From the NCBI GenBank assembly GCA_041660025.1, contig JBAZXD010000002.1, positions 4,635 to 68,634 of the forward strand: a stretch of DNA of 64,000 nucleotides. The letters run 5' to 3'. Positions 777 to 36,640 of the stretch are shown one piece after another. The notes beneath the pieces are model-generated. The model worked only from the letters and a program-made list of their open reading frames with translations. It ran no database searches and was not told where the DNA came from. Both the position numbers and the translations under genes were made by a program. Each line of letters starts with the position of its first letter. The stretch's first letter is position 1. Source of the stretch: Minisyncoccota bacterium. Its GTDB lineage: Bacteria; Patescibacteriota; Minisyncoccia; Phycocordibacterales; Phycocordibacteraceae.

Positions 777-870
777 GCAAAGCTTGCTCCTTGCACTTGC
801 CTCGAACAAATGAACGAAGGCGTTCATTTGTTGCTCAGCTCGCTTGGTAATAAAAAAACGCCCCGGCATG
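777..870 (+). repeat. Conserved post-stop-codon intergenic element, copy A (CAAAGCTTGCTCC ... hairpin ... GCTCGCTTGGTAATA AAAAAAA)
   Basis: Shares the 5' box CAAAGyTTGCTCC and the 3' box GCTCGCTTGGTArTA plus an A-run with copies at 32907 and 36519. A different central hairpin sits in the same position in each copy. Confidence 0.55.
807..830 (+). terminator. Perfect 10-bp stem hairpin (caaatgaacg-aagg-cgttcatttg) 30 nt after the murC stop. It lies inside repeat element copy A.
   Basis: Inverted repeat read directly from the sequence. No strong T-run follows. Confidence 0.4.
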
Positions 871-1180
871 CAGGGCATTTGTCAAAAGTTGCCGAAAAAA
901 TGTGAGTTCCTTGCCGACATCGATTTTTCTGGCTTCGGTTGTGCCGGTCTCGGCGTGCCCATATGAAGTGCAGCATCCACAGGGTCTCGGAACGCAGCTG
1001 GCCACCTCGGCTTTCCTTTCAATCTCCGCGTCGATGCTTTTGGCGTACCGACACAAAGCGCGTGCTCCATTGCACTTGTAAGGCTCATAAATCCTCCGGG
1101 AAATGGGCGGTTGCGAAAGGTTTCTCCAGTGGCGATTATAGCGCATTGTCATAATAAGTCAATTGGGGTAGAGTGCGTGT

Positions 1181-1861
1181 ATGGGAACACTCTCAGTCGT
1201 CGCGACGCCGATAGGGAACTTGGAGGACATCACGCTCCGCGCTCTGCGGACGCTGAAAGAATGCGACGTCATTTATGCCGAGGATACGCGCGTCGTTTCA
1301 AAACTGCTTGCACGGTATGAGATTAAGAAGCCACTGCAACGACTCGATGCCGCGACAGAACTAAAAAAGGCGGACGAGATAATTACACGGCTTGAAGCCG
1401 GGGAGCGCGTCGTGTTTGTGAGCGACGCCGGTACACCGGGCGTCAGCGATCCCGGCGCGCGGCTCGTGGCGGCGGTGCGCAAGCTTTTGCCAAGCGCGAC
1501 GATCGAGGCGATACCAGGCGCCTCCGCGCTCACCGCGGCACTCTCTATTGCGGGAATCGACTCGACCGGATTCACCTTTCTCGGATTTCTGCCCCACAAG
1601 AAGGGCCGTCAAACGGCGCTCAAAAAAATTGCGGCGAGCGAAATCCCAGTCGTACTCTACGAATCGCCGCATCGGATTTTGAAATTGCTTGAGGAACTGG
1701 GAACTCTCGAAGTTTCGCAGGTTACGCTCGCCCGCGAGCTTACGAAGATCCATGAGGAAGTGGTCTCGGGCACGCCGCAGGAAGTACAGGGGCATTTCGC
1801 CGCGCACCCCGATGCCGTAAGAGGAGAATTTGTGGTTATTATTGAAGCGAAGCGAAAATAG
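1181..1861 (+). CDS. rsmI: 16S rRNA (cytidine1402-2'-O)-methyltransferase, tetrapyrrole-methylase fold
   Basis: N-terminus MGTLSVVATPIGNLEDITLRALRTLKECDVIYAEDTRV and the motifs SDAGTPGVSDPG and YESPHRI are typical of RsmI. Confidence 0.8.
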   Translation: MGTLSVVATPIGNLEDITLRALRTLKECDVIYAEDTRVVSKLLARYEIKKPLQRLDAATELKKADEIITRLEAGERVVFVSDAGTPGVSDPGARLVAAVRKLLPSATIEAIPGASALTAALSIAGIDSTGFTFLGFLPHKKGRQTALKKIAASEIPVVLYESPHRILKLLEELGTLEVSQVTLARELTKIHEEVVSGTPQEVQGHFAAHPDAVRGEFVVIIEAKRK

Positions 1862-1896
1862 TAACCACCCTGTTAAATCCCTTCAAATCTCCTCCC

Positions 1897-2157
1897 ATGT
1901 TTTATACTTATGTACTTTTATCCGGAAAAGATAAAAAATTTTACACAGGATATAGCGCCGATTTGAAGGGACGATTTGAGGAGCATTCGAAGGGGAAAGT
2001 AAAATCAACAAAAGATCGCCTGCCGTTAAGTCTTGTTTATTACGAGGCTTGCCTGAACGAGCGGGATGCTCGGCATCGTGAACGATATCTAAAAACTCAC
2101 CACGGCAAGCTGTTCCTTCGGAATCGCCTCAAATCGTATTTAACAGGGTTCGCATAG
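1897..2157 (+). CDS. Stand-alone GIY-YIG nuclease-domain protein (UPF0213-like)
   Basis: 86 aa containing YTYVLLSGKDKKFYTGYSADLKGRFEEH, i.e. a GIY-YIG core with the conserved R and E. Confidence 0.6.
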   Translation: MFYTYVLLSGKDKKFYTGYSADLKGRFEEHSKGKVKSTKDRLPLSLVYYEACLNERDARHRERYLKTHHGKLFLRNRLKSYLTGFA

Positions 2158-2171
2158 TCTGGTAGACTATG
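2153..2171 (+). promoter_or_regulatory. 8-bp stem hairpin (catagtct-ggt-agactatg) spanning the GIY-YIG stop codon and the ATG of the next ORF
   Basis: Inverted repeat read directly. It could act as a terminator or occlude the downstream start codon. Confidence 0.3.
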
Positions 2172-2405
2172 CTCATGTCCCGCACGAGCATCCTCATCCT
2201 TCTCGGTATTCTGGTCATCATCACTCCTTTTTCCGGACTCCCCATATTCCTGCGCTCATCGCTCGCAGTCATCTTCGGCGCCTGTGTGCTCGGCATAGGC
2301 ATCAGAGACCGCTCCCGAGAGGCGCGCGCGGCGCGCGGCGCTCAACCATCGGTCGAGTCTCCGATCGAACCGCCTCAGCCTCCGTCGGATATCTCTCCGA
2401 TCTAA
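2169..2405 (+). CDS. Small hypothetical membrane protein with two predicted TM helices and a Pro-rich tail
   Basis: Hydrophobic N-terminal 50 aa (ILILLGILVIITPFSGLPIFL...VIFGACVLGIGI). No homology recognised. Confidence 0.35.
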   Translation: MLMSRTSILILLGILVIITPFSGLPIFLRSSLAVIFGACVLGIGIRDRSREARAARGAQPSVESPIEPPQPPSDISPI

Positions 2406-2452
2406 TCTTGCACAAACACAAATCCCGCCGTGGCGCGGATTTGTTATACTTT

Positions 2453-4273
2453 ATGGCAATGGAGAATCCCGAGCGTGTTACCTACTTCGCAGCGACCGAC
2501 GCGCGAGGGAAGTATATTCCTTTCGGCATTAAAGCGAAGGACCGCGACCGCCATATGTACGTCATCGGCAAGACCGGTATGGGCAAGTCGACCTTGCTCG
2601 AGAATATGGCGATTCAGGATTTGCGGAATGGCGAGGGACTTACCTTCATCGACCCGCACGGGGGGACGGCTGAGCGCCTGCTCGACTACATCCCCGAGAA
2701 CCGCATCAAGGACGTCGTATACTTCGCCCCGTTCGACCTGGAGCACCCCATCGCCTTCAACGTGATGGAGGACGTCGGCTACGACAAACGCCACCTCGTG
2801 GTGAGCGGTCTTATGGCGACCTTCAAGAAGATATGGGAGGACGCCTGGAGCGCTCGTATGGAATACATCCTCACCAATACGCTCCTTGCGCTCCTCGAAT
2901 ACCCCGGCGCCACCCTCCTCGGCGTCAACCGGATGTACACCGACAAAGAATACCGGCAGAAGGTGGTCGAGAACGTGAAAGACCCGGTCGTGAAGGATTT
3001 CTGGATGAAAGAGTTCGCTAATTATGGCGACCGCTATACCCAGGAAGCGACGCCCGCCATCCAGAACAAGGTCGGACAGTTCACCGGCAACCCGCTCATC
3101 CGGAACATCATCGGCCAGCCGAAATCTTCGTTCGACATCCGCACGATGATGGACGAAAAGAAGATCCTCATCATCAACCTCTCCAAAGGTCTCGTGGGAG
3201 AGACGAATATGCGCCTCCTAGGCTCGATGCTCACGACGCGCATCTTCCTCGCCGCGATGAGTCGCGCGAACCTTCCCGCCCCGGAGCTCGCGAAGCTTCC
3301 GCACTTTTATTTCTACGTGGACGAGTTCCAGAACTTCGCGAACGAGACCTTCGCGGAGGTTCTCTCCGAGGCGCGCAAATATAAGCTGGACCTCGTCATC
3401 GCGCACCAGTACATCGAGCAGATGGAAGAGGAGGTGCGCGACGCCGTGTTCGGTAACGTCGGCACGACCGTCGTCTTCCGCGTCGGCCCCTTCGACGCCG
3501 AGGTGCTCGAGACGATCTTTATGCCGAAGTTCACGAAGGAAGATGTCGTCACGCTCGATAAGCGACAGATCTATCTCACGCTGATGATAGACGGGGTCGG
3601 GTCGGCGCCGTTCTCTGCGGTGACCATCCCGCCGATCGAAGCGCCTCCCGTCTCCTGCCGGGAGCAGGTTATCGCGGCGTCGCGGGCGCAGTTCTCCGCG
3701 CCGCGCGCCGGCATCGAGAGCGCCATTATGGAGGAGTTCGCGATGAGCGCGGCCTCCGAAGCTCCGTTCGATGCGCGAATGAAGAAGAAACCGGTCCAAC
3801 CTGCGCCGCGCGTCTCGGTCCCGACCCCTCTCCCTCCTCGTGCGGACTCGAGACCACCCTTTCCTCCGCGACCACCCTTCCTCCGCCCTTCGCCAAGAGC
3901 TCCGGAGGTTACGGCGCGTCCGTCCCAAGAACAGCCGCGGCGGGAATTCACTCCCCGTCCTTTGCGTGCTCCAGAGAGCACCGCCCGCCCGCCGCTTGAG
4001 CGCCCGGCCCCGCCGACAAAGAGCGCTGAGGACCTTAAGGCAATTCTGCGCACTATGACCGCGAAGAGCGGCGCGGAGAAGGAGAAGAAACAGGAACAGA
4101 ACCAACAGTCACTCAAAGGGGCGCTCGCCGAAGTGCTCGAAAAGAGCAAGCCCGCGGCGGCGGAGCCGCTGCGGGCGATCCCGCCACCAGCAGTTCCGGT
4201 ACAAGAAGAAAAAAAGCCGTTTGAAGTTTCTGAGGATTCGTTGCGGAAGGTGCTGAAAGGCGAGATAGAATAG
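2453..4273 (+). CDS. DUF87/AAA-like ATPase of the TraD/TraG/VirD4/HerA coupling-protein type, with a long Pro/Arg-rich low-complexity C-terminal tail
   Basis: FGIKAKDRDRHMYVIGKTGMGKSTLLENMAIQDLRNGEGLTFIDPHGG (Walker A in a TraD-like context) and a Walker B-like FYFYVDEFQNF. The first ATG is at 2453. The track's 2408 start is a TTG. Confidence 0.6.
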   Translation: MAMENPERVTYFAATDARGKYIPFGIKAKDRDRHMYVIGKTGMGKSTLLENMAIQDLRNGEGLTFIDPHGGTAERLLDYIPENRIKDVVYFAPFDLEHPIAFNVMEDVGYDKRHLVVSGLMATFKKIWEDAWSARMEYILTNTLLALLEYPGATLLGVNRMYTDKEYRQKVVENVKDPVVKDFWMKEFANYGDRYTQEATPAIQNKVGQFTGNPLIRNIIGQPKSSFDIRTMMDEKKILIINLSKGLVGETNMRLLGSMLTTRIFLAAMSRANLPAPELAKLPHFYFYVDEFQNFANETFAEVLSEARKYKLDLVIAHQYIEQMEEEVRDAVFGNVGTTVVFRVGPFDAEVLETIFMPKFTKEDVVTLDKRQIYLTLMIDGVGSAPFSAVTIPPIEAPPVSCREQVIAASRAQFSAPRAGIESAIMEEFAMSAASEAPFDARMKKKPVQPAPRVSVPTPLPPRADSRPPFPPRPPFLRPSPRAPEVTARPSQEQPRREFTPRPLRAPESTARPPLERPAPPTKSAEDLKAILRTMTAKSGAEKEKKQEQNQQSLKGALAEVLEKSKPAAAEPLRAIPPPAVPVQEEKKPFEVSEDSLRKVLKGEIE

Positions 4274-4278
4274 TCCCT

Positions 4279-5535
4279 ATGCGCGTCGCCGGGTTGCTCG
4301 CACTGGCCATCCTCACTCCCTCGCTTGTGTATGCGGCCGAGCCGCCTATACTTGCGACCTATACCATTTCGCAGAGTGTCATCTATCCGACCGCGACGGC
4401 CGAGTCCGGGCTTGCGACCACCACCGTTATTGATATCGCTTTTTCCGAACCGGTAAAAGCCTCCATCAAGATACTGTCCGCGGACGGTACCCTGATGAAG
4501 TCGCTGTATACGAGTTCGAGCGTCACCAACCCTGCGCCGAAGACGTGGGATGGGACGAATAATGCGGACACGTTCGTTGTCGACGGAACGTACACAGTAC
4601 TCATTTCAGCCACGTCCACCGCGACGAGTCTGTCGATGATTGACTCGTCCGGAACGATCACCGTTGCATCATCAGGCGGTCCCGATCCGTCAGAACCGGA
4701 TCCCTCCGCCCCTTCCGATGCAACCGCCGCGACGGGCGCATCGAGCAGTGGTCCGGCAGAATATCTTCCGATACCGGTCTTGCGTATCCTCACAAGCAGC
4801 TCGCGCACAGTATCTTCCGGTGCGGACACCGCCTTTACCTCCGCCGTGTATGACAGCAGGGGAAACAGGCGCGATGATGCCGTGGTGACCTGGTCGTTCG
4901 GCGACGGGATGCGCAGGACCGGCGCGAATGTCCTCCACCCGTATCACGACCCGGGCGAATACATCGTCATCGTCCGCGCGACGACTCCCGACGGCGGCGA
5001 CGCGGTCGTCGAGACCATCGTGACCGTGAAGGACGCGAGCATCAAGATCGCCGCCGTGTCTTCCCGGGGCATCACGCTTGCCAATGATAGTTCGCGGACG
5101 CTCGATCTCTCGTGGTGGCGCCTGTCGGCGGGCGGCCAGGAATTCAAGATCCCCGCGGATACGCAGATGCTTCCCGGGCGTACGGTCCTTTTCCCCTCGC
5201 AGGTGATAGAGCTCCCGGTGACGGGGTCGGCATCGCTCCTCTATCCGAGCGGGGAAGTGGCGGCTGCGTATCCAGCGGTAGCTGCTGTACCACAGAGTGC
5301 GCTCAAGCAACCTTCTTTCAATGGAGCGAGTTATGAAAAGGTACAGGCGGTCGAGCCGATTATCAGCACGCAAACGAACATTCGAGCATATGAAGAAGCA
5401 GTAGATGCCCCCACCGCGGCGACCGAACTCGCCGCGGTGGGGGCGGTCCCCGCACCGAGCATTTTCCGTTCTCCGTGGTTCCTCAGCTTCCTCGGTGTTG
5501 TGGCGCTCGCCGGCAGCGCATTCATATTCCTCTGA
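4279..5535 (+). CDS. Secreted, membrane-anchored surface protein with a PKD-like domain
   Basis: Signal peptide MRVAGLLALAILTPSLVYAA. PKD signature WSFGDGMRRTGANVLHPYHDPGEYIVIVRATTPDGG. C-terminal hydrophobic anchor WFLSFLGVVALAGSAFIFL. Confidence 0.55.
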   Translation: MRVAGLLALAILTPSLVYAAEPPILATYTISQSVIYPTATAESGLATTTVIDIAFSEPVKASIKILSADGTLMKSLYTSSSVTNPAPKTWDGTNNADTFVVDGTYTVLISATSTATSLSMIDSSGTITVASSGGPDPSEPDPSAPSDATAATGASSSGPAEYLPIPVLRILTSSSRTVSSGADTAFTSAVYDSRGNRRDDAVVTWSFGDGMRRTGANVLHPYHDPGEYIVIVRATTPDGGDAVVETIVTVKDASIKIAAVSSRGITLANDSSRTLDLSWWRLSAGGQEFKIPADTQMLPGRTVLFPSQVIELPVTGSASLLYPSGEVAAAYPAVAAVPQSALKQPSFNGASYEKVQAVEPIISTQTNIRAYEEAVDAPTAATELAAVGAVPAPSIFRSPWFLSFLGVVALAGSAFIFL

Positions 5536-5573
5536 TTCGCACTCAATCGATTTTTACGCTACGCTTTCTCGAA

Positions 5574-6425: not shown

Positions 6426-7585
6426 AACGCGTGCTCATCTTCTCGCTCGCGTATTATCCGCATGTGGGCGGGGCGGAGGTTGCGCTGAAGGAGATCACCG
6501 ACCGTCTCACGGACATTGAATTCCATATGGTGACCATGCGATTTTCCGGAACAGAGGCGCGTGAAGAGAAGGTCGGCAACATATTCGTCCATCGGATCGG
6601 GAACGGAGAAGGGAGATTGAATAAATATCTCTATCAATTTTTTGCGGCGTGGAAAGGAGCACAGCTCCACAGGCAATATCATTTTGGAGCTCTCTGGGCG
6701 ATGATGGCGCATTCCTCCGGCGTGCCGGCGGCTCTTTTCAAACTGTTCCATCCCCGCGTGCCGTACGTGCTGACCCTCCAGGAAGGGGACCCTCCTGAAT
6801 ACATCGAACGGCTCGCTTGGCCGGTCTGGCCTCTCTTTTCCCGAGCATTTACTTCCGCCGATGCTATTGCGGCCGAATCAACCTTCCTCGGCCGCTGGGC
6901 TCTTCGGAGAGGGTTTAAGGGACCCCTGGAGGTAATCCCCAACGGCATGGATGCAGAGCGGTTCGCGCGGGTGCCGGCGCAGGGAGAGACGGAGGCCGTC
7001 CGGGCGAAGATTGGGAAAAAAGAGGGCGAGATATGGCTCGTCCATACCGGTCGGCTGGTGCACAAAAATGCGCTTGATATATGCATTCGCGCGTTGCCGC
7101 TTTTGCCGGAGACCGTTCGTTTCTTCATGCTCGGAGATGGTCCCGACAAGAATATGCTCGTCAAACTCGGCCGTGAGCTTGGTGTTTCCGCGCGCACGCA
7201 TTTCCATCCGTACGTGCCGCTTGTTGAAATACCGAATTATTTGAAAGCGTGCGACCTCTTCATACGCCCGTCGCGCTCCGAGGGTATGGGCAACTCTTTT
7301 ATCGAAGCGATGGCGGCAGGCTTGCCGGTCATCGCGACACAAGAGGGCGGCATCGCGGACTTTCTCTTTGACGCGAAGCGCAATCCCGACAAACCGACGA
7401 CCGGCTGGGCAGTCGATAAAGATTCGCCAGAACAGATTGCGGAAGCGGTAAAAGATATCCTCGCGCATCCCGAAGAGGTTGCGCGCGTGGTGGCGACGGC
7501 AAAGAAGCTCGCCCTCGAGAACTACGACTGGGACACTATAGCGAAGGATATGCGCGAAAAAGTTTTTATGCGCGTGTTGGGGTAA
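6422..7585 (+). CDS. Glycosyltransferase family 4
   Basis: C-terminal GT4 signature SRSEGMGNSFIEAMAAGLPVIATQEGGIADFL (E-x7-E motif). Confidence 0.7.
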   Translation: MKRVLIFSLAYYPHVGGAEVALKEITDRLTDIEFHMVTMRFSGTEAREEKVGNIFVHRIGNGEGRLNKYLYQFFAAWKGAQLHRQYHFGALWAMMAHSSGVPAALFKLFHPRVPYVLTLQEGDPPEYIERLAWPVWPLFSRAFTSADAIAAESTFLGRWALRRGFKGPLEVIPNGMDAERFARVPAQGETEAVRAKIGKKEGEIWLVHTGRLVHKNALDICIRALPLLPETVRFFMLGDGPDKNMLVKLGRELGVSARTHFHPYVPLVEIPNYLKACDLFIRPSRSEGMGNSFIEAMAAGLPVIATQEGGIADFLFDAKRNPDKPTTGWAVDKDSPEQIAEAVKDILAHPEEVARVVATAKKLALENYDWDTIAKDMREKVFMRVLG

Positions 7586-7594
7586 TATTGCGTT

Positions 7595-24374: not shown

Positions 24375-24385
24375 TTTCGGTTATT

Positions 24386-27683: not shown

Positions 27684-28239
27684 TGGCGCGGAGCTCTATG
27701 GTAAAGGTTTTTATTATGTCCCAAAAAAATCTGATGAAAAATCGATTATTGAAGAGTAGGGCCCGTGCCCCAGAAGGATTATAATATTTGTAGGAGATCT
27801 TCTCTATTTTCAGATTGCATTTCAGATCATAATCCGGCAAGAGGCCATGATCCGCGAAGCTTTTATCGAAGTATTCGAATGTTCTCTCGGAGAAAAATCT
27901 TTTATGAGTGGGATCTTTGAATGCCGCTGTTGATTTAAGATAGGGGACAATAATCGTCACTTTGGCATCTTTTCTGCAGACCCGGTAGATTTCTTCCATG
28001 ATAAAAACCGTATCATCCACGTGCTCCAAGATGCTGAATGCGGTCAATTCATCTACGGAATCATCCGCGAGCGGGATACCCTTGTTCAAGTCTGCAACGA
28101 TATCGACCTCAGGATATGGGAGCCGGTCTATGTTGATGAAACCTTCTTTCCGGTTCGGCCCGCCACCGAGATTCACTTTTTTCTTTTCAACAGGAGTTTC
28201 CATGCCTCTTAGACTTATAAGTATATGATTACACGTCAT
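27676..28239 (-). CDS. Class I SAM-dependent methyltransferase (short, Methyltransf_11/23-like)
   Basis: VNLGGGPNRKEGFINID, LTAFSILEHV and DAKVTIIVP. Alternative start at METPV (28203). Confidence 0.55.
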   Translation of the reverse strand: MTCNHILISLRGMETPVEKKKVNLGGGPNRKEGFINIDRLPYPEVDIVADLNKGIPLADDSVDELTAFSILEHVDDTVFIMEEIYRVCRKDAKVTIIVPYLKSTAAFKDPTHKRFFSERTFEYFDKSFADHGLLPDYDLKCNLKIEKISYKYYNPSGARALLFNNRFFIRFFWDIIKTFTIELRAIK

Positions 28240-28361
28240 TTCTTACAAGGTTGTGATATCGGCTGTGCTAGAATTACCCAATCGGTAACGTATTGTCCAA
28301 ATCATAGGTTTATGTAATATAACGCTATATCCTGCCCACTAAGATTATTTTTGCGGATTTT

Positions 28362-29186
28362 ATGAACATAAAACAAGTCTTTTTTCTAGATCGTCGGGGG
28401 GAGATTGTCGGGACGCCAGAAAAGCAGACCAAGAAAGTAATAAATTCTTCCGTGGCATTCCCCATTGTCGTTGAGTATTATGATTGGGATTTGGATAAGC
28501 AGGCAAAAAGCGCTGAACAGTATAAGGATCAGATAAAACGCGTGTTTTATCAGGAGGGAGTGGATGATGCGGTGAAAGTAATGCTACAGGACGATGTGGC
28601 ACGTTTGAACTTGGTTCAGAAACTTGACTACGGCTCCAGAATCTTGGAAGTCGGGTCAAGTGACGGCTCAGTGAGCGTTAAGATTGCGGCGCAAAAAAAA
28701 GTAAGAGAAATCCTAGCAATCGATATACGCCAATCAGCCATCAGTGACGGGAAGAAGCTCGTTCGGGATTTAGTCAAGGACGGGGAGATTTCCGCTTCAG
28801 TTGCCCAGAAAATAAGTCTTAAGAAATATGCGATTCAAGATCTACCGGGACGGTACGGCACGTTCGACAGCGTCTGCGCCTATGAAGTCTTTGAGCACCT
28901 TGCCCCATGGGACATGATGCCGGTCTTCGAACATATATATAAGTTCATAAAACCGAAAGGGAAATTTTTCATAAGTGTACCCAATCGTTTTCCGGACTCC
29001 AAGTATGAAAAACAAGGAAGAAGCCGCTGGCGCTGGTTTGATCATAGGAATTTCTTTAGTCAGGTCAGTCTCAATCTTTTTTTGATGTCCTTCTTTAAAA
29101 AAGTTACTTTTTATCCGCTCTATCCTCACGAAAAGGCTGGAGACAGCCTCTACCTCATTTGCGAATGCTATGGCAAAAGATTCTAA
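28362..29186 (+). CDS. Class I SAM-dependent methyltransferase
   Basis: ILEVGSSDGSVSVKIA, VCAYEVFEHL and GKFFISVPN. Confidence 0.55.
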   Translation: MNIKQVFFLDRRGEIVGTPEKQTKKVINSSVAFPIVVEYYDWDLDKQAKSAEQYKDQIKRVFYQEGVDDAVKVMLQDDVARLNLVQKLDYGSRILEVGSSDGSVSVKIAAQKKVREILAIDIRQSAISDGKKLVRDLVKDGEISASVAQKISLKKYAIQDLPGRYGTFDSVCAYEVFEHLAPWDMMPVFEHIYKFIKPKGKFFISVPNRFPDSKYEKQGRSRWRWFDHRNFFSQVSLNLFLMSFFKKVTFYPLYPHEKAGDSLYLICECYGKRF

Positions 29187-30015
29187 ATTGAAAATAATAG
29201 CTGAAATCGCATCTTCGCATAATGGCGACGTTGGTCTCGGCAAAAGAATGATACAGATTGCTGCATCTGCCGGCGTTGATATCGTTAAGTTCCAGTCCTG
29301 GCAGAGCAGAAATGTCGATGAGAGCGATCCGGATAAGGCGCGCTACGCTTCCCTTGAGTTATCTGACGATGCTCACTATGAGCTGAAAGAGGAATGTGAG
29401 AAAAACGGCGTTGAGTTCCTGACTACCTGCTATAACAGCGATCGGATACCGTTCCTGAAAGAACTCGGTCTGGAAAAAATCAAAGTAGCAAGCACCGATC
29501 TGAAGGCGTCACACTTTCTGAAGAAACTCCGCGATAACTTCAAAGAGGTAATCGTTTCTACAGGAATGTCGACCAAAGAAGAGATAGAACAAGCGGTAGA
29601 AATATTAAAGAGCGGAGAATTCACGATGATGCACTGCGTTTCGGTCTACCCCTGCCCGCTTGAAAAAGCCAATATGGGAAAGTTACTCTGGCTGCAGAGA
29701 TTGACGCCGCATGTCGGTTATTCCGACCATACTGAAGGGATCGAAGCACCAATTTTTGCCATGGGCATGGGGGTAAAATACATAGAAAAACATTTCACTC
29801 TTGATAAACACACTCTGCAAACACCACATGCGGTCGGTAAGGGGATACCTCCAATCACTACGCATTCGATTGCCAGCGAACCGGAAACATTCAGACAGAT
29901 TTGTGAGTGGCGCGATAAATATGAAATAGCCTTGGGTAATGGTAGCCTGGAGCTTCTACCTGAGGAGAGATTGACAAGAGAAAAATATACTGGCCGGTTG
30001 GGCCGGAATGACTAA
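29170..30015 (+). CDS. neuB: N-acetylneuraminate (nonulosonic acid) synthase, NeuB family. TIM-barrel core only, no C-terminal SAF/antifreeze-like domain.
   Basis: KIIAEIASSHNGDVGLGKRMIQIAASAGVDIVKFQSW matches the NeuB N-terminal signature. Confidence 0.7.
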   Translation: MAKDSKLKIIAEIASSHNGDVGLGKRMIQIAASAGVDIVKFQSWQSRNVDESDPDKARYASLELSDDAHYELKEECEKNGVEFLTTCYNSDRIPFLKELGLEKIKVASTDLKASHFLKKLRDNFKEVIVSTGMSTKEEIEQAVEILKSGEFTMMHCVSVYPCPLEKANMGKLLWLQRLTPHVGYSDHTEGIEAPIFAMGMGVKYIEKHFTLDKHTLQTPHAVGKGIPPITTHSIASEPETFRQICEWRDKYEIALGNGSLELLPEERLTREKYTGRLGRND

Positions 30016-30018
30016 TGT

Positions 30019-31191
30019 ATGACTGATACCATGAAAAAGAGGAAGATCTGTTTTGTCATAACCAGTTTCATCCACTACAGCAGGAATATGCTTGTCCTGG
30101 AGGAACTGAAGAAAAGGCCTGATGTCGAACTCCATGTCGTGATTGGCGGTGCGGCATTGATCTCTCGATATGCCTCGAGGTCTGCGACGATCAGCCAGAT
30201 TCTTATTAATGATCATTTCGAGCATATTCATGAAATTCACTTCAATCTTGAAGGAGATCTTCCTATCATCAAAGGCAAGACAACGGGCTTGGGGATAATA
30301 GAGTTCTCGACACTGTTCAACAACCTCAAGCCGGACCTGGTGGTAATCAGGGGTGATAGATTCGAAGTTTTAGCAGCCGTAATCGCTGCTGCGTACTCAA
30401 ATATTCCGATTGCCCATATAGAAGGCGGGGATGTCTCCGGCACGATAGATGAAAGCGTCCGACACGCAATTACGAAATTCTCGCACATTCATTTTCCTAC
30501 TAATACCGAATCGAAGGACCGTATCATCCGAATGGGCGAGGATCCAAAATACATTTTCAATCTAGGCTCCCCAGAGGTGGAGGTTGTTTCGAAGATGAAA
30601 AAAAAGAATTATAAAATTGATATCGCCAAGACAGGTAGCGGAGCGGACATTTCTCTCAGCAAGGATTACATCATCGTGATGTATCATCCGGTGACGACTG
30701 AATTGAAGGACAGCGTTTCGAACATACAAAAGCTCATCAAGGTCGTTCATGAACTCAATGTACAGACACTATGGTTCTGGCCTAATGCCGATGTCGGTTC
30801 CGAAGAGATCGCCCATCAGTTGCGCATATTCAACGATAGAACCAGGAATCATAAGATACGCTTCCTGCGAGATATCCCTTCCAGAGAATTCTTAACACTT
30901 CTTAAAAACAGCCGTTGCTTGGTGGGAAATTCTTCGGCAGGTATGAAAGAATGTTCATATTTTGGCGTACCTGCCGTGAATATCGGCACTAGGCAGAACG
31001 GCCGATTGCACGCGAAGAACGTCATAAACGTCACTCACAGTGAAGCTTCGATACGAGAGGGAATCCGAACACAGATGAGGAAGAAACGATACCCCTCTTC
31101 GGATCTATACAAAGCCGATAACACCGCAAAGAAAATGGCGGAAGTTATGGCGACAATCAATCTATATGTGCAGAAACGATTTATTGATTAA
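30019..31191 (+). CDS. neuC: UDP-N-acetylglucosamine 2-epimerase, hydrolysing (NeuC-like)
   Basis: KICFVITSFIHYSRNMLVLEEL, IAHIEGGDVSGTIDESVRHAITKFSHIHFPTN and HPVTTE are Epimerase_2 motifs. It sits directly between the neuB-like and neuA-like genes. Confidence 0.7.
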   Translation: MTDTMKKRKICFVITSFIHYSRNMLVLEELKKRPDVELHVVIGGAALISRYASRSATISQILINDHFEHIHEIHFNLEGDLPIIKGKTTGLGIIEFSTLFNNLKPDLVVIRGDRFEVLAAVIAAAYSNIPIAHIEGGDVSGTIDESVRHAITKFSHIHFPTNTESKDRIIRMGEDPKYIFNLGSPEVEVVSKMKKKNYKIDIAKTGSGADISLSKDYIIVMYHPVTTELKDSVSNIQKLIKVVHELNVQTLWFWPNADVGSEEIAHQLRIFNDRTRNHKIRFLRDIPSREFLTLLKNSRCLVGNSSAGMKECSYFGVPAVNIGTRQNGRLHAKNVINVTHSEASIREGIRTQMRKKRYPSSDLYKADNTAKKMAEVMATINLYVQKRFID

Positions 31192-31193
31192 AT

Positions 31194-31928
31194 ATGATTT
31201 TTGAGAAAAAAATCCTAGGAGTCATCACCGCGCGTGGCGGGTCGAAAGGGCTGCCAGGGAAGAACATAAAACTGCTCAACGGGAAACCGCTCATCGTGTA
31301 TACGATAGAAGCCGCTCGAGAAAGCAGACTGATTACCGATCTCATCGTCTCGACGGACAGCGAGGAGATAGCCGGAATCTGTCGCGAGCACGGGGCAGAG
31401 GTTCCCTTCATCCAGCCGGCGGAATTGGCGACCGACACCTCAGGACATCTTGAGGTTATGCAATACGCGACGAAGTTCATGGAAGAGCAGAAAAGCACTG
31501 CCTATGATTATGTCGTGATATTCCAACCCACCTCTCCGTTCCGTACGGTGGATGACATAGACAAGACAATTGAAAAAATAATCGAGCACAATGCGGACAG
31601 CGCCTTTTCCATGTGTGCAGTAGAGCCCAGCCAGCATCCAATCAAGGTGAAAAAAATGGAAGGAGATACAGTACTGCCGTATTGTATGGAAGAAATGATC
31701 GGCACCCATCGGCAGGATTTCCCGAAAGCGTATAAGCGTTCAGGTGCGGTATATGTCACGGGGCGCGATATTTTGATGAAAGAAAATAAACTATTCGGTG
31801 ACTTCATAGTGGGTCACATCGTGCCTGCCGAACGTTCGATTGATATCGATACCGAATACGATTGGGTCTTGGCGGAATATAAATACAAAAAACTTAAAGA
31901 GCAGGGGTTCTTTGGAAAGACGGCTTGA
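31194..31928 (+). CDS. neuA: Acylneuraminate cytidylyltransferase (CMP-nonulosonic acid synthetase)
   Basis: ILGVITARGGSKGLPGKNIKLLNGKPLIVYTIEAA is the CTP_transf_3 signature. Last gene of the low-GC island. Confidence 0.75.
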   Translation: MIFEKKILGVITARGGSKGLPGKNIKLLNGKPLIVYTIEAARESRLITDLIVSTDSEEIAGICREHGAEVPFIQPAELATDTSGHLEVMQYATKFMEEQKSTAYDYVVIFQPTSPFRTVDDIDKTIEKIIEHNADSAFSMCAVEPSQHPIKVKKMEGDTVLPYCMEEMIGTHRQDFPKAYKRSGAVYVTGRDILMKENKLFGDFIVGHIVPAERSIDIDTEYDWVLAEYKYKKLKEQGFFGKTA

Positions 31929-32036
31929 TACTAGACCACCACTCCTCTTATTCCAAGATGCAGAGGGCGTGATATCATTACCGTATCCTCCCTGGAGGAG
32001 AAGGATCATTATCCCGTAACTAACTATTAAGCCAGT

Positions 32037-32906
32037 ATGAAAAAATTTATAGCGACAGCAGGGGCTCTGGCACTCGCGCTTGGCGGGTTCCCAGTGGCTC
32101 TCGTGCATGCGGAGCGGGGAAGCGATGACGCGAACGTACAGGTAACTGCGGTCACAGCAGTGCGTGTCTCTGATGACGCGACGGACGATGATACGGACGA
32201 TGGGGACAAGACAGTGTCCGTAACCGCGCAAATTGATAATGACAGCGACGACTCGGATGCGACGAGCACCGACGTCTCGGCAATATCGGGCAAGCAGAGA
32301 AGCGAAGAAGAGAAGAAGTTGCGCGAAGCGCGCAGGGAAGAAGTGAAGCTCGCACTCGAAACGCTGAAGGAGAGTATTCGCTTCGAGCTCGAGGATGACG
32401 AGGACCGAGCGTCCTCGATTGCAGAGCTGAAGCAGAAGATAGAGGAACGCAGGCAAGAACTCGACGATGAAGAGGCGAGCACGACACCTCGGTTCAAGGA
32501 TGTGATGAAGAACGCGAACGAAGTGCGTCTCGCGGTACACACGCTCCTCGCCTCGAAGGATCTCTTGGGCGGCATCGGACAGCAAGTGTCGGAGATCGCG
32601 AAGCAGATGAACGACTCGGTCGCGACGACGACGAACGCCGAAGCGCAGATCGAGTCGCGCGGCTTCCTCTCGAAGATCTTCTTCGGCGGCGACAAGCGGG
32701 CCGCTGAAGCCATCAGCAAGGAGGCGAAGCGCAATCAGGAGAGCATCGCGAAGCTCACCGAGCTCCTGAACGAGGCGAATCTCTCGGTGGATATCCAGGC
32801 GGCGCTTGAAGCGCAGGTAACTGCGCTCAAGGAGGCGCAGGCCCGTTTCCAGGCGCTCGCAGAGAAGGAGCAAAGGACGTGGGGCATCTTCAGTTGGAGG
32901 TTCTAA
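32037..32906 (+). CDS. Secreted acidic, Asp-rich, coiled-coil-rich hypothetical protein
   Basis: Signal peptide MKKFIATAGALALALGGFPVALVHA. D-rich tract DDATDDDTDDGDK...DNDSDDSDATSTD. Heptad-like E/K/L-rich C-half. The overlapping 360-aa minus-strand ORF is Leu/Arg-rich GC shadow. Confidence 0.5.
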   Translation: MKKFIATAGALALALGGFPVALVHAERGSDDANVQVTAVTAVRVSDDATDDDTDDGDKTVSVTAQIDNDSDDSDATSTDVSAISGKQRSEEEKKLREARREEVKLALETLKESIRFELEDDEDRASSIAELKQKIEERRQELDDEEASTTPRFKDVMKNANEVRLAVHTLLASKDLLGGIGQQVSEIAKQMNDSVATTTNAEAQIESRGFLSKIFFGGDKRAAEAISKEAKRNQESIAKLTELLNEANLSVDIQAALEAQVTALKEAQARFQALAEKEQRTWGIFSWRF

Positions 32907-33035
32907 GCTCGCAAAGCCGAGCTTCCTCCCGGCGCTCGCTCGGAAGAATGAAATGAGAATTTCTTCTTCGCTTGCTCGCTTGGTAGTAGAAGATTAGGGA
33001 AAAGAGCGGCCGCCCCAGAGGGGGCGGCCGCGCTT
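32907..33035 (+). repeat. Conserved post-stop-codon intergenic element, copy B, ending in an 11-bp-stem GC hairpin
   Basis: CAAAGCCGAGCTTCCTCCC GGCGCTCGCTCG, then hairpin GAAGAA-tgaaatgagaat-TTCTTC, then GCTTGCTCGCTTGGTAGTA GAAGA. Starts at the first base after the TAA stop at 32904-32906. Confidence 0.55.
33006..33031 (+). terminator. GC-rich hairpin gcggccgcccc-agag-ggggcggccgc (11-bp stem)
   Basis: Perfect inverted repeat. No T-run, so it may be a Rho-independent-like or stability element. Confidence 0.4.
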
Positions 33036-33055
33036 CGTGGTATAGTTGCCCCATT

Positions 33056-35230
33056 ATGGAGGGGGACGGTATCGCAAAGAACATCGCACGATGGGTAGCG
33101 CTCGGCGCGCTCTTCCTTATCCCGTTTACGCCGCTCATCGTCGCGGGGGGATACTTCTTCCCCTTTATCACCGGCAAGGCGTTCTTCTTCCGTATCCTGA
33201 TCGAGATCGCCGTCTCCGCGTGGGTGGTGCTCGCACTTCTCGATAAGGAATACCGTCCGCGCTTCTCGCTCGTTGGCGCGGCGGTTGTCGCCTTCACCCT
33301 GTGGATGTTCATCGCCGACGCCTTCGCGCCGAACGCGGCAAAAGCGTTCTGGAGCAACTTCGAGCGTATGGAGGGCTGGGTGCTCCTCGTACACCTCCTC
33401 GGATTCTTCTTCGCCGCGAGTGCGGTGCTGAGGGTGCAGGAGAAGTGGCGCGCATGGTTTCTTACCTCGCTCGGGGTCTCCGCCGCCGTCGTCGGGTACG
33501 CTCTGCTTCAATTGAACGGAACATTCGCGATTCATCAGGGCTCTACCCGCATCGACGCCTCGATGGGCAACTCCGCCTACCTCGCGATCTATCTCCTCTT
33601 CAACGTGTTCATCGCGCTTTGGCTCGCACTGACCGAGAGGCTCGCGTGGCTCAAATGGTCCCTTATCGCGCTTGCGGCGGTGGAGGCCGTTCTTATTTTC
33701 TTTACCGAAACACGCGGCGCTATCTTAGGGCTTGTCGGCGCGCTCGCGCTCGCGGCGTTCCTGACCGCGCTCTCCGCCGGGAAGCACGCCCGCCGCGGAG
33801 CGGCGGGCGTGCTCATCCTCATCCTGTTTCTCGCGGGCGGCTTCTATCTCGCGCGCGATTCAGCGTTCGTGCAGGGGAATCACGTACTTCAGCGTGTCGC
33901 CTCTATCTCGCTTACCGACGGTGCGACGCGCTTTACCATCTGGCAAATGGCGTTTCGAGGCGCGCTCGAGCGCCCGCTCACCGGCTGGGGGCAGGAAGGA
34001 TTCAATTACGTTTTCAACAAGCAGTATGACCCCTCGCTCTATGCGCAGGAGCCGTGGTTCGACCGGGCGCACAACGCATTCATCGATTGGCTCTCAGCGG
34101 GAGGCATGCCCGCATTCCTGCTCTATCTCTCGCTCTTCGGTACGACCATCGTACTGCTGTGGCGAAGTTCCGAGCTCTCGCGTCCGGAGCGTACTCTGCT
34201 TACCGCCGCACTCGCCGGCTACGCCGTCCACAATCTCTTCGTCTTCGACAACCTCTATTCCTATATATATTTCTTCGCGATACTCGCGCTCGTCGACTCA
34301 CAGGTGGGCCGCCCTGTCGCTCGATGCGAGAACGCGCCGGAGCTTCCTGCTGAAGCGGGGATGGCGTATGCGCTCCCGATCGCTACCGTCGTGGCGCTCG
34401 CGCTCATCTGGTCGGTAAACGTCTCCGGTATGCAGGTTGCGACGAAACTCATCACGGCGCTGTCAGGCTCTTCTGGTGGTATCGGCGCGAGCATCACCGT
34501 CTTTGAAGACCTTGCCGCTCATCCGGCGTTCGCCGCGCAGGAGATCCGCGAACAGCTCGTCTCGTTCTCAGCGGCGGTCGCACGGAGCCAGCAGGCGACG
34601 AATGAAGAGAAACAGCGGGCGGTCTCGCTCGCGGCGAGCGAGATGCAGAAACAGGTCGCCGCGTATCCGCGCGACGCGCGCGCGCGGCTCCAGCTCTCCT
34701 ACGTATATCGCACCGCCGGCGATAGCGCGAGCGCGCTGAAGGAGATCAAGGCCGCCATCGCGCTCTCACCGCAGAAGGAGGGCTTCTGGATCGAGGCGGG
34801 CGCAGTTGAATGGGACCTCGGCGATGTTGCTGCGGCGCGGAAAAGTTTTTATACCGCGTATGAGCTCGGGAAGCAGTTCTCCGGACTCGCCGCGTATGCC
34901 GCCGCTGGCGACATCCTTGTCGGCGACCTTGCGGCCGCCGACAAGGTCCTGCGCGAGGCCTACGGCACGACGGCTGTCGACAGCGATATTCTCGCGGTCG
35001 CCTATTACCGCACCAAGAATTGGCCGCGACTCATCAGCCTCTGGAGGATGCGGGCGGAACAGCCGGGCGCGACCGCCGAGACCTGGTTCTCGCTCGCCGC
35101 CGCTTATTACACCTCGGGCGACCGGGCGAATGCCGTCAAGACGATCAACAAGGCGGTCGCGCTTTATCCGGCCTCCGCGGCGGCGGGCGCCTCTGCCATC
35201 AAGCAGATAGAGGCCGCCGCCGCGCAATGA
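33056..35230 (+). CDS. O-antigen ligase/polymerase-family (Wzy_C-like) polytopic membrane protein fused to a C-terminal TPR-repeat domain
   Basis: N-terminal 430 aa with about 10-12 TM helices and the loop AHNAFIDWLSAGGMPAFLLYL typical of the O-antigen-ligase family. The C-terminal 300 aa are Ala-rich TPR-like repeats (LQLSYVYRTAGDSASALKEIKAAIALSP ...). Confidence 0.6.
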   Translation: MEGDGIAKNIARWVALGALFLIPFTPLIVAGGYFFPFITGKAFFFRILIEIAVSAWVVLALLDKEYRPRFSLVGAAVVAFTLWMFIADAFAPNAAKAFWSNFERMEGWVLLVHLLGFFFAASAVLRVQEKWRAWFLTSLGVSAAVVGYALLQLNGTFAIHQGSTRIDASMGNSAYLAIYLLFNVFIALWLALTERLAWLKWSLIALAAVEAVLIFFTETRGAILGLVGALALAAFLTALSAGKHARRGAAGVLILILFLAGGFYLARDSAFVQGNHVLQRVASISLTDGATRFTIWQMAFRGALERPLTGWGQEGFNYVFNKQYDPSLYAQEPWFDRAHNAFIDWLSAGGMPAFLLYLSLFGTTIVLLWRSSELSRPERTLLTAALAGYAVHNLFVFDNLYSYIYFFAILALVDSQVGRPVARCENAPELPAEAGMAYALPIATVVALALIWSVNVSGMQVATKLITALSGSSGGIGASITVFEDLAAHPAFAAQEIREQLVSFSAAVARSQQATNEEKQRAVSLAASEMQKQVAAYPRDARARLQLSYVYRTAGDSASALKEIKAAIALSPQKEGFWIEAGAVEWDLGDVAAARKSFYTAYELGKQFSGLAAYAAAGDILVGDLAAADKVLREAYGTTAVDSDILAVAYYRTKNWPRLISLWRMRAEQPGATAETWFSLAAAYYTSGDRANAVKTINKAVALYPASAAAGASAIKQIEAAAAQ

Positions 35231-36297
35231 ACCTCCAGGAACACGTCCCGCTCGCGCCCCTTACCACACTCGGCGTGGGCGGGGAGGCGCGATTTTTCGT
35301 TTCTGCACAGTCAGTCGAGGAGGTACAGGAGGCGCTCGAGTTCGCGCGAAGCCGCGCGCTCCCGCTCTTTGTGCTCGGCGGCGGCTCGAACATCGTCATC
35401 GGTGACGACGGCTGGGACGGGCTCGTGCTCGCGCTCCAGATACCGGACATTGCCGAGAGCGAACAGAACGGCCGCGCGATACTGACGGTCGGTGCCGGCG
35501 TCGTGTGGGACGACTTCGTCGCATATGCAATCGAGCGGGGATTCATCGGCATCGAATGCCTCTCCGGCATTCCAGGGTTGGTCGGCGGCGCGGTGGTCGC
35601 GAATGTCGGCGCGTACGGAGCGCAATGTAGCGACACGCTCATACGCGCGGACGTGCTCGTACGCGGCGATGGACAGGACTCAGTCCAGGTTTTCAAGAAT
35701 GAAGAATGTAATTTTTCATATCACGACAGCAGATTCAGTCACGAGCCCGGGCGATATATCGTACTGCGCGCGACCTTCTCGCTCGCGACCACCGGCACCT
35801 CACATCTCTCCTATCGGGACAACCGTTTCGATCTGAACGCACTCGCCGCAAAGAACGGCCGCGAGCCGACGCCGGCGGATGTCCGCGCCGCAGTGCTCGG
35901 TATGCGCGAGGAAAAGGGCGTCCTCGGCAGTTCCTATAAGAGCGCCGGGTCGTTCTTCCATATGCCGTTCGTCTCGCCGGAGCAGTATGCGCGAATCAGG
36001 GCCCAGGCGTGCGCGCTCGACGCGGTGAAGGAGGAGCGGCTGCGCCCCTGGGCGTGGAAACAGCCGGACGGAACCTACAAGATCGCCCCCGGCTTCTTGC
36101 TCGAGTACACGGAGTTCCAGCGGGGGTATGTACGCGGGAATGTCGGCATATCACCGCGGCACACACTGTCGATCATCAATGTCGGCGGCGCGCAGTCGCG
36201 CGATATCGCGGAGCTCGCGCGCGATATGCAAAACGCGGTTGAGAAAATTTTTGGCATTCAACTTGAGCGCGAAGTGGAGTATGTCGGTTTCGCATAA
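35227..36297 (+). CDS. murB: UDP-N-acetylenolpyruvoylglucosamine reductase
   Basis: MNLQEHVPLAPLTTLGVGGEARFF, LFVLGGGSNIV and GGAVVANVGAYG are MurB FAD-binding motifs. ATGA overlap with the upstream stop. Start at the internal Met, not the track's 35020. Confidence 0.8.
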   Translation: MNLQEHVPLAPLTTLGVGGEARFFVSAQSVEEVQEALEFARSRALPLFVLGGGSNIVIGDDGWDGLVLALQIPDIAESEQNGRAILTVGAGVVWDDFVAYAIERGFIGIECLSGIPGLVGGAVVANVGAYGAQCSDTLIRADVLVRGDGQDSVQVFKNEECNFSYHDSRFSHEPGRYIVLRATFSLATTGTSHLSYRDNRFDLNALAAKNGREPTPADVRAAVLGMREEKGVLGSSYKSAGSFFHMPFVSPEQYARIRAQACALDAVKEERLRPWAWKQPDGTYKIAPGFLLEYTEFQRGYVRGNVGISPRHTLSIINVGGAQSRDIAELARDMQNAVEKIFGIQLEREVEYVGFA

Positions 36298-36437
36298 GTT
36301 ATCCACACTCCGCTTTTTTTTCTCACACAAAAAGTTTTTTACGCGCGATAATAACGTATAGAAACGTTTGCGAGTGAAATATTTTCTCGCGCAGACGGGT
36401 CGACATACCAGCCCTCACCCATAATTCGCAAACCACC

Positions 36438-36518
36438 ATGGCAAAAAAGCGTAAGGCCGCGAAGAAGACAGCAAAGCGCAAGACAACGAAGCGCAAGGCT
36501 GCAAAGAAGCGCAAATAG
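36438..36518 (+). CDS. Candidate 26-aa Lys/Ala-rich micro-ORF (MAKKRKAAKKTAKRKTTKRKAAKKRK)
   Basis: ATG..TAG open frame found by reading the sequence; absent from the ORF track. Composition resembles histone H1/Hc1-like basic tails. Conserved element copy C starts at the first base after its stop codon. Confidence 0.25.
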   Translation: MAKKRKAAKKTAKRKTTKRKAAKKRK

Positions 36519-36640
36519 TTTCGTAAACAAAGTTTGCTCCCAGCGCTCGCTCGAAAAAGAAAAATCAGAATCTTTCTTTTCTCTCGCTCGCTTGGTAGTA
36601 AAAAGAAAAATCCCTCCGTTCGCGGAGGGATTTTTCTTTG
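36519..36640 (+). repeat. Conserved post-stop-codon intergenic element, copy C, ending in a canonical intrinsic terminator
   Basis: CAAAGTTTGCTCCC AGCGCTCGCTCG, then an A/T hairpin, then TCTCGCTCGCTTGGTAGTA AAAAGAAAAA, then the terminator. Confidence 0.55.
36603..36637 (+). terminator. Rho-independent terminator aaaaATCCCTCC-gttcgc-GGAGGGATttttctttg
   Basis: 8-bp GC-rich stem followed by a T-run. Confidence 0.7.

Follow-up and report, generated by a model that had tools for sequence, protein, structure and literature searches.

What kind of sequence recurs, base-precisely and with its own fold, at the ends of quite different genes? The question is raised by a stretch of 64,000 nucleotides from a Minisyncoccota bacterium (assembly GCA_041660025.1, contig JBAZXD010000002.1, forward-strand positions 4,635 to 68,634), hereafter the window, in which three copies of a short structured motif lie at or just past stop codons. 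A first-pass annotation, made from the letters alone, had described a conserved element with a covarying central hairpin and proposed, as alternatives, a small RNA derived from the 3' untranslated region (UTR), a processing or stability element and a lineage-specific protein-binding site. The three copies probably represent a family of small, non-coding, strand-asymmetric insertion elements found in Paceibacteria and related Patescibacteria. The family has a conserved unit of two hairpins which sits between RTA and a purine (RTA^R, the caret marking the insertion point), regenerates the stop codons that it enters, forms arrays, and is present at some orthologous sites and absent from others. 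Its exact location in TAA and TAG stop codons and in tRNA-like sites gives it the behaviour of a mobile element.

Three copies in the window and the anatomy of the unit

The window contains exactly three unit copies (A, B and C), all on the + strand (776-852, 32906-32988 and 36526-36600). The 12-mer GCTCGCTTGGTA of the 3' box has three exact matches, at 838, 32974 and 36586 and likewise all on the + strand, where 0.30 are expected; a fourth match, with one mismatch, is intragenic. An nhmmer profile of the three copies, a profile of 77 relatives and a covariance model each recover A, B and C only in the 64 kb, and the covariance-model scores are 63-78 bits for these copies versus 15 bits for the next best match. 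The count of three given by the first-pass annotation was thus confirmed by the exact count of the 3' box, by the profile and by the covariance model. The window has no Rfam match at gathering score and no tRNA. The copies and their parts, each with the basis of its assignment, are the following.

776-852, + strand: copy A, subtype 1, 77 nt (covariance model, 78.3 bits)
775-785, + strand: hairpin 1 of copy A, short form AAGC-AAA-GCTT (sequence reading, fold)
787-804, + strand: 5' box of copy A, CTCCTTGCACTTGCCTCG (sequence reading, alignment)
805-832, + strand: hairpin 2 of copy A, AACAAATGAACG-AAGG-CGTTCATTTGTT (fold, covariance model)
833-852, + strand: 3' box of copy A, GCTCAGCTCGCTTGGTAATA, resembling a tRNA D-arm (motif scan, alignment)
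32906-32988, + strand: copy B, subtype 2, 83 nt (covariance model, 63.4 bits)
32905-32924, + strand: hairpin 1 of copy B, AAGCTCG-CAAAGC-CGAGCTT (fold)
32926-32942, + strand: 5' box of copy B, CTCCCGGCGCTCGCTCG (sequence reading, alignment)
32943-32969, + strand: hairpin 2 of copy B, GAAGAA(T)GAAAT-GAGA-ATTTCTTCTTC, with a bulged T (fold, covariance model)
32970-32988, + strand: 3' box of copy B, GCTTGCTCGCTTGGTAGTA (motif scan, alignment)
36526-36600, + strand: copy C, subtype 2, 75 nt (covariance model, 63.5 bits)
36525-36535, + strand: hairpin 1 of copy C, short form AAAC-AAA-GTTT (sequence reading, alignment)
36537-36553, + strand: 5' box of copy C, CTCCCAGCGCTCGCTCG (sequence reading)
36554-36581, + strand: hairpin 2 of copy C, AAAAAGAAA...TTTCTTTTC (fold, covariance model)
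36582-36600, + strand: 3' box of copy C, TCTCGCTCGCTTGGTAGTA (motif scan)

Copy A is inserted as TA^A into the stop codon of a Mur-ligase gene (TAA 774-776), A776 being the first base of the element, and copy B as TA^A into that of a 289-aa secreted acidic protein (TAA 32904-32906). Copy C lies at CGTA^A, past the TAG stop (36516-36518) of a 26-codon K-rich open reading frame (ORF). All three had been said to start 1-3 nt behind a stop codon; the association with stop codons holds and the distances do not, since base 1 of A and of B is at once the final base of the stop and C begins 8 nt after its TAG. The 26-codon ORF (36429-36518, + strand; MAKKRKAAKKTAKRKTTKRKAAKKRK), rich in lysine and arginine, is directly upstream of copy C, and a strong terminator follows. 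On the - strand, a 105-codon ORF (835-1152) ends with a TGA (complement of TCA 835-837) within the 3' box of copy A; it has no Pfam match, crosses the terminator and is probably spurious.

Folding confirmed the central hairpin in every window copy, while the outline of the element had to be redrawn. The conserved unit is not 100-130 nt long but 75-83 nt in the window copies, and 75-100 nt across the family. The A-rich run and the 'terminal hairpin' formerly counted among its parts are the host genes' own terminators; across the family, a terminator-like hairpin occurs within 75 nt of the element in 22 of 128 copies (17%). What had been taken for a single 5' box, CAAAGyTTGCTCC, resolves into a variable hairpin 1 (H1; foot AAGC/GCTT), one spacer base and the CTCCC start of the true box, and CAAAGC is not a conserved box, since in copy B these letters form the loop of H1.

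Read from its flanking TA, the unit consists of A/G plus H1, one spacer base, CTCCCnGCGCTyGC(C)TCG, hairpin 2 (H2) and CTCrGCTCGCTTGGTAGTA. H1 stands on the foot A-AGC/GCU-U and has a stem of 4-13 bp, variable in sequence and length, with loops that are frequently of the H2 kind (CGGA, CAGA, AGAA). In H2, a lower stem of 6 bp and an upper stem of 4-5 bp are separated by an irregularity, and an NRGA tetraloop closes the tip. Of 114 copies, 40 have an unpaired T in the 5' arm at the irregularity and 23 an A·C mismatch; among the tetraloops AAGA (43 copies) precedes CAGA (15), AGGA (11) and CGGA (11), so that, with regard to a CsrA-type GGA loop, the commonest loop is AAGA and not GGA. About 37 nt of each unit are near-invariant, unpaired box sequence. 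An outer pairing of CTCC..GC with GC..GG.AG is possible and about 99% paired, but these bases are invariant and covariation is uninformative there. Subtype 2, represented by B and C, has neither half of the C15-G51 pair that is present in subtype 1, represented by A. There is no ORF within the element, and a 66-copy alignment shows no terminal inverted repeats (TIRs) when the 5' end, TAAGC plus a variable hairpin, is compared with the reverse-complemented 3' end TACTACCAAGCGAGC. In several relatives the next start codon comes about 10 nt past the element. An outward promoter (-35 TTGTCA, 17 nt, then TA) was considered and rejected, as in the alignment the supposed -35 lies within a covarying stem and is unconserved.

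Distribution, covariation and the folding strand

The first-pass annotation had suggested looking for further copies in relatives, and many were found. Species-representative genomes were scanned with the exact pattern CTCCNNGC, a gap of 30-55 nt and GCTCGCTTGGTARTA, and pieces of 8-15 kb were examined around the loci (numbered L001 onwards). Seventy-four of the 79 loci come from 44 metagenome-assembled genome assemblies of Patescibacteria, labelled Paceibacterota, Kaiserbacteria, Parcubacteria, Minisyncoccia or Patescibacteria; the other five (Streptomyces, two Thioglobus, Planctomycetaceae and Gemmatimonadota) are chance matches to the short pattern only. Metagenomes were scanned with the 5' half alone (TAAGC, a gap of 3-22 nt, GCTTNCTCCCNGCGCTYGC), which avoids a selection bias for the 3' box, and yielded 62 further true loci, chiefly from groundwater and sediment. 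In about two thirds of these the 3' box GCTCGCTTGGTAGTA is exact, and in the remainder one or two bases differ; L096, L113, L115 and L120 are visibly decayed. Since the 3' box is kept in loci selected on the 5' half alone, both boxes are truly conserved. The two public scans together add some 130 distinct copies, from at least 44 species-level Patescibacteria genomes and from metagenomes, and 117 copies were aligned by the covariance model.

The family is restricted to Patescibacteria. A permissive Rfam search with copy B gave noise only (E at least 0.37), and in the library searched no paper mentions the motif or describes repeats of this sort, including miniature inverted-repeat transposable elements (MITEs), in bacteria of the candidate phyla radiation (CPR), nor was anything relevant found on tRNA introns in these bacteria. 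The element family is previously undescribed, although its kind, that of small non-autonomous bacterial repeats, is familiar; it is set apart by its stop-regenerating insertion, by a D-arm-like 3' end combined with D-loop targeting, and by conservation in many species.

In one assembly (DATDST01), three identical copies (L039 ~3000-3125, L049 ~4590-4705, L055 ~4835-4950) are embedded in a larger repeated context with ATTCGTATCAT-like motifs on either side, and the element may there be nested in, or carried by, another repeat. At L078 (~7130-7175) a short tandem repeat of GGTTGGAGGTTGGAGGTTGG immediately follows an element copy.

The covariation that had been read from three central hairpins became very strong once about 114 distinct relatives were added. 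When whole units were aligned by MAFFT and folded by RNAalifold, the stems did not line up and the hairpins went undetected; an alignment of the cores only and the covariance model were used instead. In the gap-poor alignment of 48 subtype-1 cores, 11 of the 16 H2 pairs change on both sides, with 124 two-sided-change cells against 42.6±5.3 after shuffling (none of 500 shuffles reaches 124). In the model-based alignment of 114 distinct copies, 15 of 16 pairs do so, with 404 cells against 122±7.5 (0/500), and controls with slid partners give at most 94. These figures should not be read as probabilities, given that related sequences were aligned by fitting them to the model, but the effect is very large. 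Folding energies agree: own stem halves reach -10.45 kcal/mol in H2 versus -4.83 for swapped halves (p = 1e-24), and -7.18 versus -3.30 kcal/mol in H1 (p = 1e-12). A lineage-specific, conserved and structured nucleic-acid element, as first proposed, is therefore supported.

Whether the structure acts as RNA is a separate matter. The reading closest to the original proposal is that of an RNA with a host function in cis, i.e., a two-hairpin module of 3' UTRs and intercistronic spacers that was spread by ancient insertion and whose copies are kept by selection, with roles in binding a lineage protein, in 3'-end protection, in processing, or in modulating termination or ribosome release. We consider this a minor, if genuine, possibility. 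It agrees with the fact that both hairpins are kept intact in nearly all of the ~130 copies and with the single-stranded CCUCCC box, which by its sequence resembles an anti-Shine-Dalgarno. The folding strand speaks against it. A fold of the sense RNA would tolerate G·U and avoid A·C, and the reverse is seen: H2 has 38 G·U versus 87 A·C cells (37 versus 64 without the conserved mismatch column) and H1 three of each, so that the sense-strand signature is lacking. Of 66 whole units, 59 fold more stably as the complementary strand (mean difference 4.1 kcal/mol), and copies antisense to genes (L022, L023, L050, L058) have intact hairpins. These data fit selection for structure in the DNA, or in either strand, better than mRNA structure; as wobble cells are not independent, the strand comparison is a lean and not a proof.

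Insertion between RTA and a purine

The junctions of 63 distinct sites give a simple rule: R at -3 in 55 of 63, then TA, the insertion point, and R at +1 in 61 of 63. The unit is located precisely between RTA and R, and its own first base is a purine; because of this, a hit in sense orientation rebuilds TAA or TAG and leaves the protein unchanged. Of 128 distinct copies, 60 have a TA+R junction that serves as the stop codon of an ORF (at least 60 codons) on the same strand; were every non-coding RTAR site as likely to be hit as any other, about 9.5% would do so, a figure based on crude gene calls. The genes upstream of the copies are varied housekeeping genes that share no common function, which does not favour a host RNA: they encode S7, L25, SecY, HU, FtsZ, FtsH, RNase J, RNase Y, type II secretion protein F, ArgRS and Mur ligase, and the Pfam domain Mur_ligase_C was detected among the proteins upstream of element copies.

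The strong dominance of the sense orientation, with 60 copies over sense stop codons and a handful antisense, would be expected of such an RNA. The bias is, however, largely explained without any RNA function, because an antisense stop reads YTA and is not a target. Some copies run antisense inside operons, and in the antisense case of L022, L023 and L050 the insertion falls in a gene overlap and the upstream gene gains a tail ending in ...YYQAS before its new stop, and L066 carries two opposed copies, each sense to its own gene. The junctions RTA^A...GTA^R are compatible both with duplication of a TA target and with an element that ends in TA, and the empty sites fit both.

The element's own GTA end is a target as well, which accounts for the head-to-tail arrays. 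Arrays of mixed subtypes are joined at ...GGTAGTA^A (L079, L027, L021), and a copy at L043 is positioned after the inner TTGGTA of an older one. Adjacent copies are direct repeats and not inverted doublets. Stop codons, tRNA D-loops after GGTA and the element's own ...GGTAGTA end would thus all be landing sites under the RTA^R rule.

The D-loops are the second conspicuous location. Thirteen of the 88 copies of the genome set, and more from metagenomes, follow GGTA in the D-loop of a tRNA sequence, in sense orientation; a single copy lies in a T stem instead, behind CCTA. In all cases examined, the interrupted tRNA is a partial duplicate and has its intact counterpart alongside: tRNA-Ile(GAT) downstream of 16S rRNA (L025, L044, L001, L040), tRNA-Ala(TGC) (L054, L063), tRNA-Asn(GTT) with a 5' partial copy upstream (L014, L041, L067, L051, L011) and tRNA-Gln (L071, L076). 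The partial duplicates come in two arrangements, as 5' and as 3' partial copies, and at L054 an exact 57-nt duplication of the 3' part of tRNA-Ala flanks the element. These contexts suggest that D-loop insertions survive only beside a second gene copy, or that insertion is coupled to duplication.

A fixed D-loop position in sense orientation, and the restoration of a normal D-arm or T-stem upon removal in silico, are what would be expected of an intervening sequence excised from tRNA and mRNA precursors. We regard such an intron as most improbable. A tRNA intron that must be spliced is ruled out, because the interrupted tRNAs are partial and adjoin an intact copy; moreover, group I and II introns are larger than the element, which matches no Rfam ribozyme or intron. 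When the element was excised in silico at the expected length, ARAGORN found no complete tRNA restored. A true group I intron of the same tRNA-Asn genes occupies the anticodon loop instead. About 200-230 nt long, it is seen at L051 (138-373, - strand) in the intact tRNA-Asn(GTT) gene beside the partial copy that bears the element (Rfam Intron_gpI, 77.3 bits), and the same layout is recognised by eye at L011 (~4095-4300, + strand).

The same contexts bring a site-specific recombination site into question, be it a folded substrate in the manner of attC or of the attP of the CTX phage, or the att site of a miniature integrative element. In either case a tyrosine or serine recombinase would act on it, one whose ancestral target was the tRNA D-arm. 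attC and CTX phage attP are both known as recombinase substrates in the form of folded single-stranded DNA. The architecture is attC-like in that a long and imperfect hairpin is bounded by conserved boxes and has unpaired spacers, a bulge and a variable tip; the 3' box GCTCGCTTGGTA closely resembles GCTCAGTTGGTA, the D-arm left flank of the D-loop insertions; the duplication at L054 is of the kind left by integration into a tRNA gene; and the stop codon falls in the first bases of the site, as it often does in integron cassettes. Nevertheless, this reading is improbable. The integron core sites RYYYAAC and GTTRRRY are absent from a consensus which begins TAAGC... and ends ...GGTAGTA, neither cassette arrays nor an integrase adjoin any copy, single copies lie behind core genes such as those of S7 and SecY, and the partial tRNA duplicates occur in two arrangements and not one.

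Two further observations concern tRNA genes. At ten loci (L066, L042, L069, L052, L108, L112, L124, L135, L139, L144) the element lies 12-16 nt upstream of tRNA-Arg(TCG) and is preceded by ...GTAGCACAGTGCCGTA, by appearance a diverged fragment of a tRNA D-arm. At L025 (489-555, - strand) and L054 (619-690, - strand), the 3' box together with a downstream tRNA fragment passes for a tRNA with the Rfam model (45.4 bits) and with ARAGORN (as tRNA-Ala).

Probable mobility, possible retention in place and known systems

Orthologous sites exist in filled and in empty form. The filled site L038 reads ...ATA TAG^AAAGC...GGTAGTA^ACGAGGCTATCC, where its ortholog L017 is empty (...ATA TA^AGAGGGGTTGTCC), as is L007. 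L061, a Patescibacteria contig with ~71% identity to the window along a syntenic stretch, a similarity that places the window in the same group, is filled where the window (~43620) is empty. At one and the same stop site of the S7 gene, GTGGTA^A, the copy is of subtype 1 in L128 and L129 but of subtype 2 in L003, L006 and L053. Variable presence at orthologous sites and different subtypes at one site are difficult to reconcile with a host RNA, as are the arrays and the copies in tRNA fragments, which have no obvious 3'-UTR role.

Other observations weigh against an insertion element, or against one in the form of a simple, young MITE. Copies within a genome are no more alike in H2 (0.68) than those of different genomes (0.64), and the closest counterpart of a copy mostly belongs to another genome; only tandem neighbours depart from this pattern. 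A MITE model with a recent burst is weakened by this comparison, and the copies within a genome are old and diverged, which speaks for the host-RNA alternative. Pairs at orthologous sites are more alike (0.74, in a gradient from 1.00 to ~0.5). Copy B has such an ortholog in the metagenome locus L136, behind the same gene, whose product ends in ...FSWRF: H1 and the 5' box are ~95% identical and the 3' box is identical in 15 of 15 positions, while the coding flanks reach ~68%. H2 has meanwhile diverged with compensatory changes, and of the downstream terminator only the shape is kept. This pattern points to selection on the boxes in place or to renewed invasion of hot spots by shared subfamilies. 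Positions are also conserved across species behind S7/EF-G, SecY, HU, a small CxxC protein and a 663-aa/459-aa gene pair, again in agreement with a host function, and the RTA^R rule accounts for no more than a part of the five-fold excess at stop codons.

To the same side belong the searches for a mover. Clustering of 625 neighbouring ORFs within about ±4 kb of ~75 loci revealed no recurrent mobile-element gene, and no solo or far-separated 5' and 3' ends, as an autonomous parent would have, were found. A tblastn search of ~1 Mb of flanks with an IS200 TnpA query gave no match, a weak negative, and a viral contig collection contained no copies. Among ten small ORFs of the window, Pfam recognised only TP_methylase and no transposase. 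Finally, H1 is terminal rather than subterminal, unlike the ends of the IS608 type.

On balance, a dedicated 3'-UTR RNA device, of the kind considered in the first-pass annotation, is not supported. The position at stop codons follows from insertion at RTA^R by an element that begins with a purine, and tandem arrays, partial tRNA duplicates, sites upstream of tRNA genes, antisense copies, empty orthologous sites and the missing G·U signal do not fit such a device. A side effect at the RNA level, such as 3'-end stabilisation or a REP-like effect on termination (REP, repetitive extragenic palindromic sequence), is possible, and the conservation in place hints at it. Once inserted, the element would be co-transcribed in 3' UTRs and intercistronic spacers and may secondarily act in a REP-like manner; REP sequences within ~15 nt of E. 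coli stop codons reportedly modulate termination or ribosome release, in work from 2015 ascribed to Liang and Deutscher.

As to how the favoured insertion element might move, the absence of TIRs and of an ORF, the strict pairing, the conserved imperfections of the stems and the lack of a sense G·U bias suggest that a trans-acting protein would recognise it in the form of a folded single strand. Conservation in at least 44 species, two covarying hairpins and ~37 near-invariant nt likewise lead one to expect a specific protein recogniser. The candidate would be a single-strand transposase of the HUH type, as for the palindrome-associated transposable elements (PATEs) of IS200/IS605 and for REP and its REP-associated tyrosine transposase (RAYT); alternatively, a recombinase might act on folded single-stranded DNA, as on attC or CTX phage attP.

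PATEs of the IS200/IS605 group are small, lack ORFs and TIRs, have imperfect hairpins near their ends and insert 3' of a transposon-adjacent motif (TAM); like REP/RAYT, they are moved by HUH enzymes, in their case the Y1 transposase TnpA, under a logic of TAM and transposon-encoded motif (TEM) (PMC10055086). The element resembles them in being small, in having no ORF, no TIRs and no clear target duplication, and in its imperfect hairpins near both ends, with the bulge or mismatch of H2 conserved. It also inserts in one orientation directly 3' of a TAM-like RTA, and its TEM-like ...GTA end resembles the target. In contrast to PATEs, no TnpA or parent with the same ends was found (~1 Mb of flanks and the window ORFs tested), H1 is at the very end instead of ~20 nt inside, and the length of 75-85 nt is below that of typical PATEs; moreover, the orientation follows that of the local genes and the boxes are conserved in at least 44 species.

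REPs and the bacterial interspersed mosaic elements (BIMEs) built of them are extragenic imperfect palindromes of 20-40 nt, headed by a GTAG motif, that are co-transcribed, often lie close to stop codons and can be retained and used by the host. The element shares with them the extragenic location, the imperfect palindromes, co-transcription at gene ends and between cistrons, a GTAG and the vicinity of stop codons. Yet its GTAG is located in the 3' box and not at the foot of a palindrome, and it has two different hairpins and ~37 nt of conserved unpaired boxes; copies are arranged head to tail where REPs form inverted doublets, copy number appears low (3 in 64 kb), insertion is base-precise and rebuilds stop codons, and no RAYT was identified in the genome pieces. 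Similarly, the element is small, non-coding, multi-copy and insertion-polymorphic as a MITE is, and shares with Correia (NEMIS), RUP and other TA-targeting MITEs a length of ~100 nt, TA insertion, co-transcription and presence/absence polymorphism; it differs in having no TIRs, by which it also departs from IS630/mariner-like MITEs, in its strong asymmetry and in subfamilies shared between genomes.

In attC sites, the stop codon of the preceding ORF is often within the first bases of the site. The element has in common with them conserved ends, a variable central palindrome whose structure is kept, extrahelical or mismatched bases and a hint of a one-strand fold, whereas it has no R''/R' cores, cassette arrays or intI, and follows housekeeping genes, tRNA fragments and its own tandem copies. 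A last comparison is offered by the Rickettsia palindromic elements (RPEs), small palindromic repeats of a reduced genome which are tolerated in or at genes and RNA genes. RPEs insert in frame within ORFs and are translated, whereas the element avoids coding sequence by occupying the stop codon itself.

The surroundings of the copies in the window deserve brief mention. Between ~14000 and 32000 lies a block of low GC (0.43-0.48 versus 0.54-0.63 around it), with copy B at its right edge. ORFs of this block (e.g., products of 29170-30015, 30019-31191 and 31194-31928) look like enzymes of sugar or sialic-acid pathways on inspection of their sequences, and the block may be an acquired polysaccharide island. 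Positions 46329-54527 (+ strand) are taken up by one ORF of 2732 codons.

To our knowledge, almost nothing is known of repeats, mobile DNA and non-coding signals in CPR bacteria, whose genomes are tiny and streamlined. Residence in stop codons with the protein left unchanged would be a way for mobile DNA to persist where intergenic space is nearly absent, and the affinity for D-loops together with the partial tRNA duplications may reveal the recombination chemistry. In practical terms, the element can mislead annotation, as both ARAGORN and the Rfam tRNA model predict spurious tRNAs beginning within its 3' box, and it could serve as a lineage marker. More tentatively, and with doubt on our part, the family may stand for one of two things: a new class of hairpin-dependent mobile DNA, whose 3' end mimics the D-arm and whose RTA^R rule makes D-loops and stop codons, the latter rebuilt on insertion, its natural landing sites, or a signal, common to the Paceibacteria, at the stop codons of core genes (S7, SecY, HU, FtsZ and others) that was recruited by the host and kept by selection, as the boxes of copy B and L136 would illustrate. 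In the latter case, it would be the first candidate gene-end signal described for CPR bacteria.

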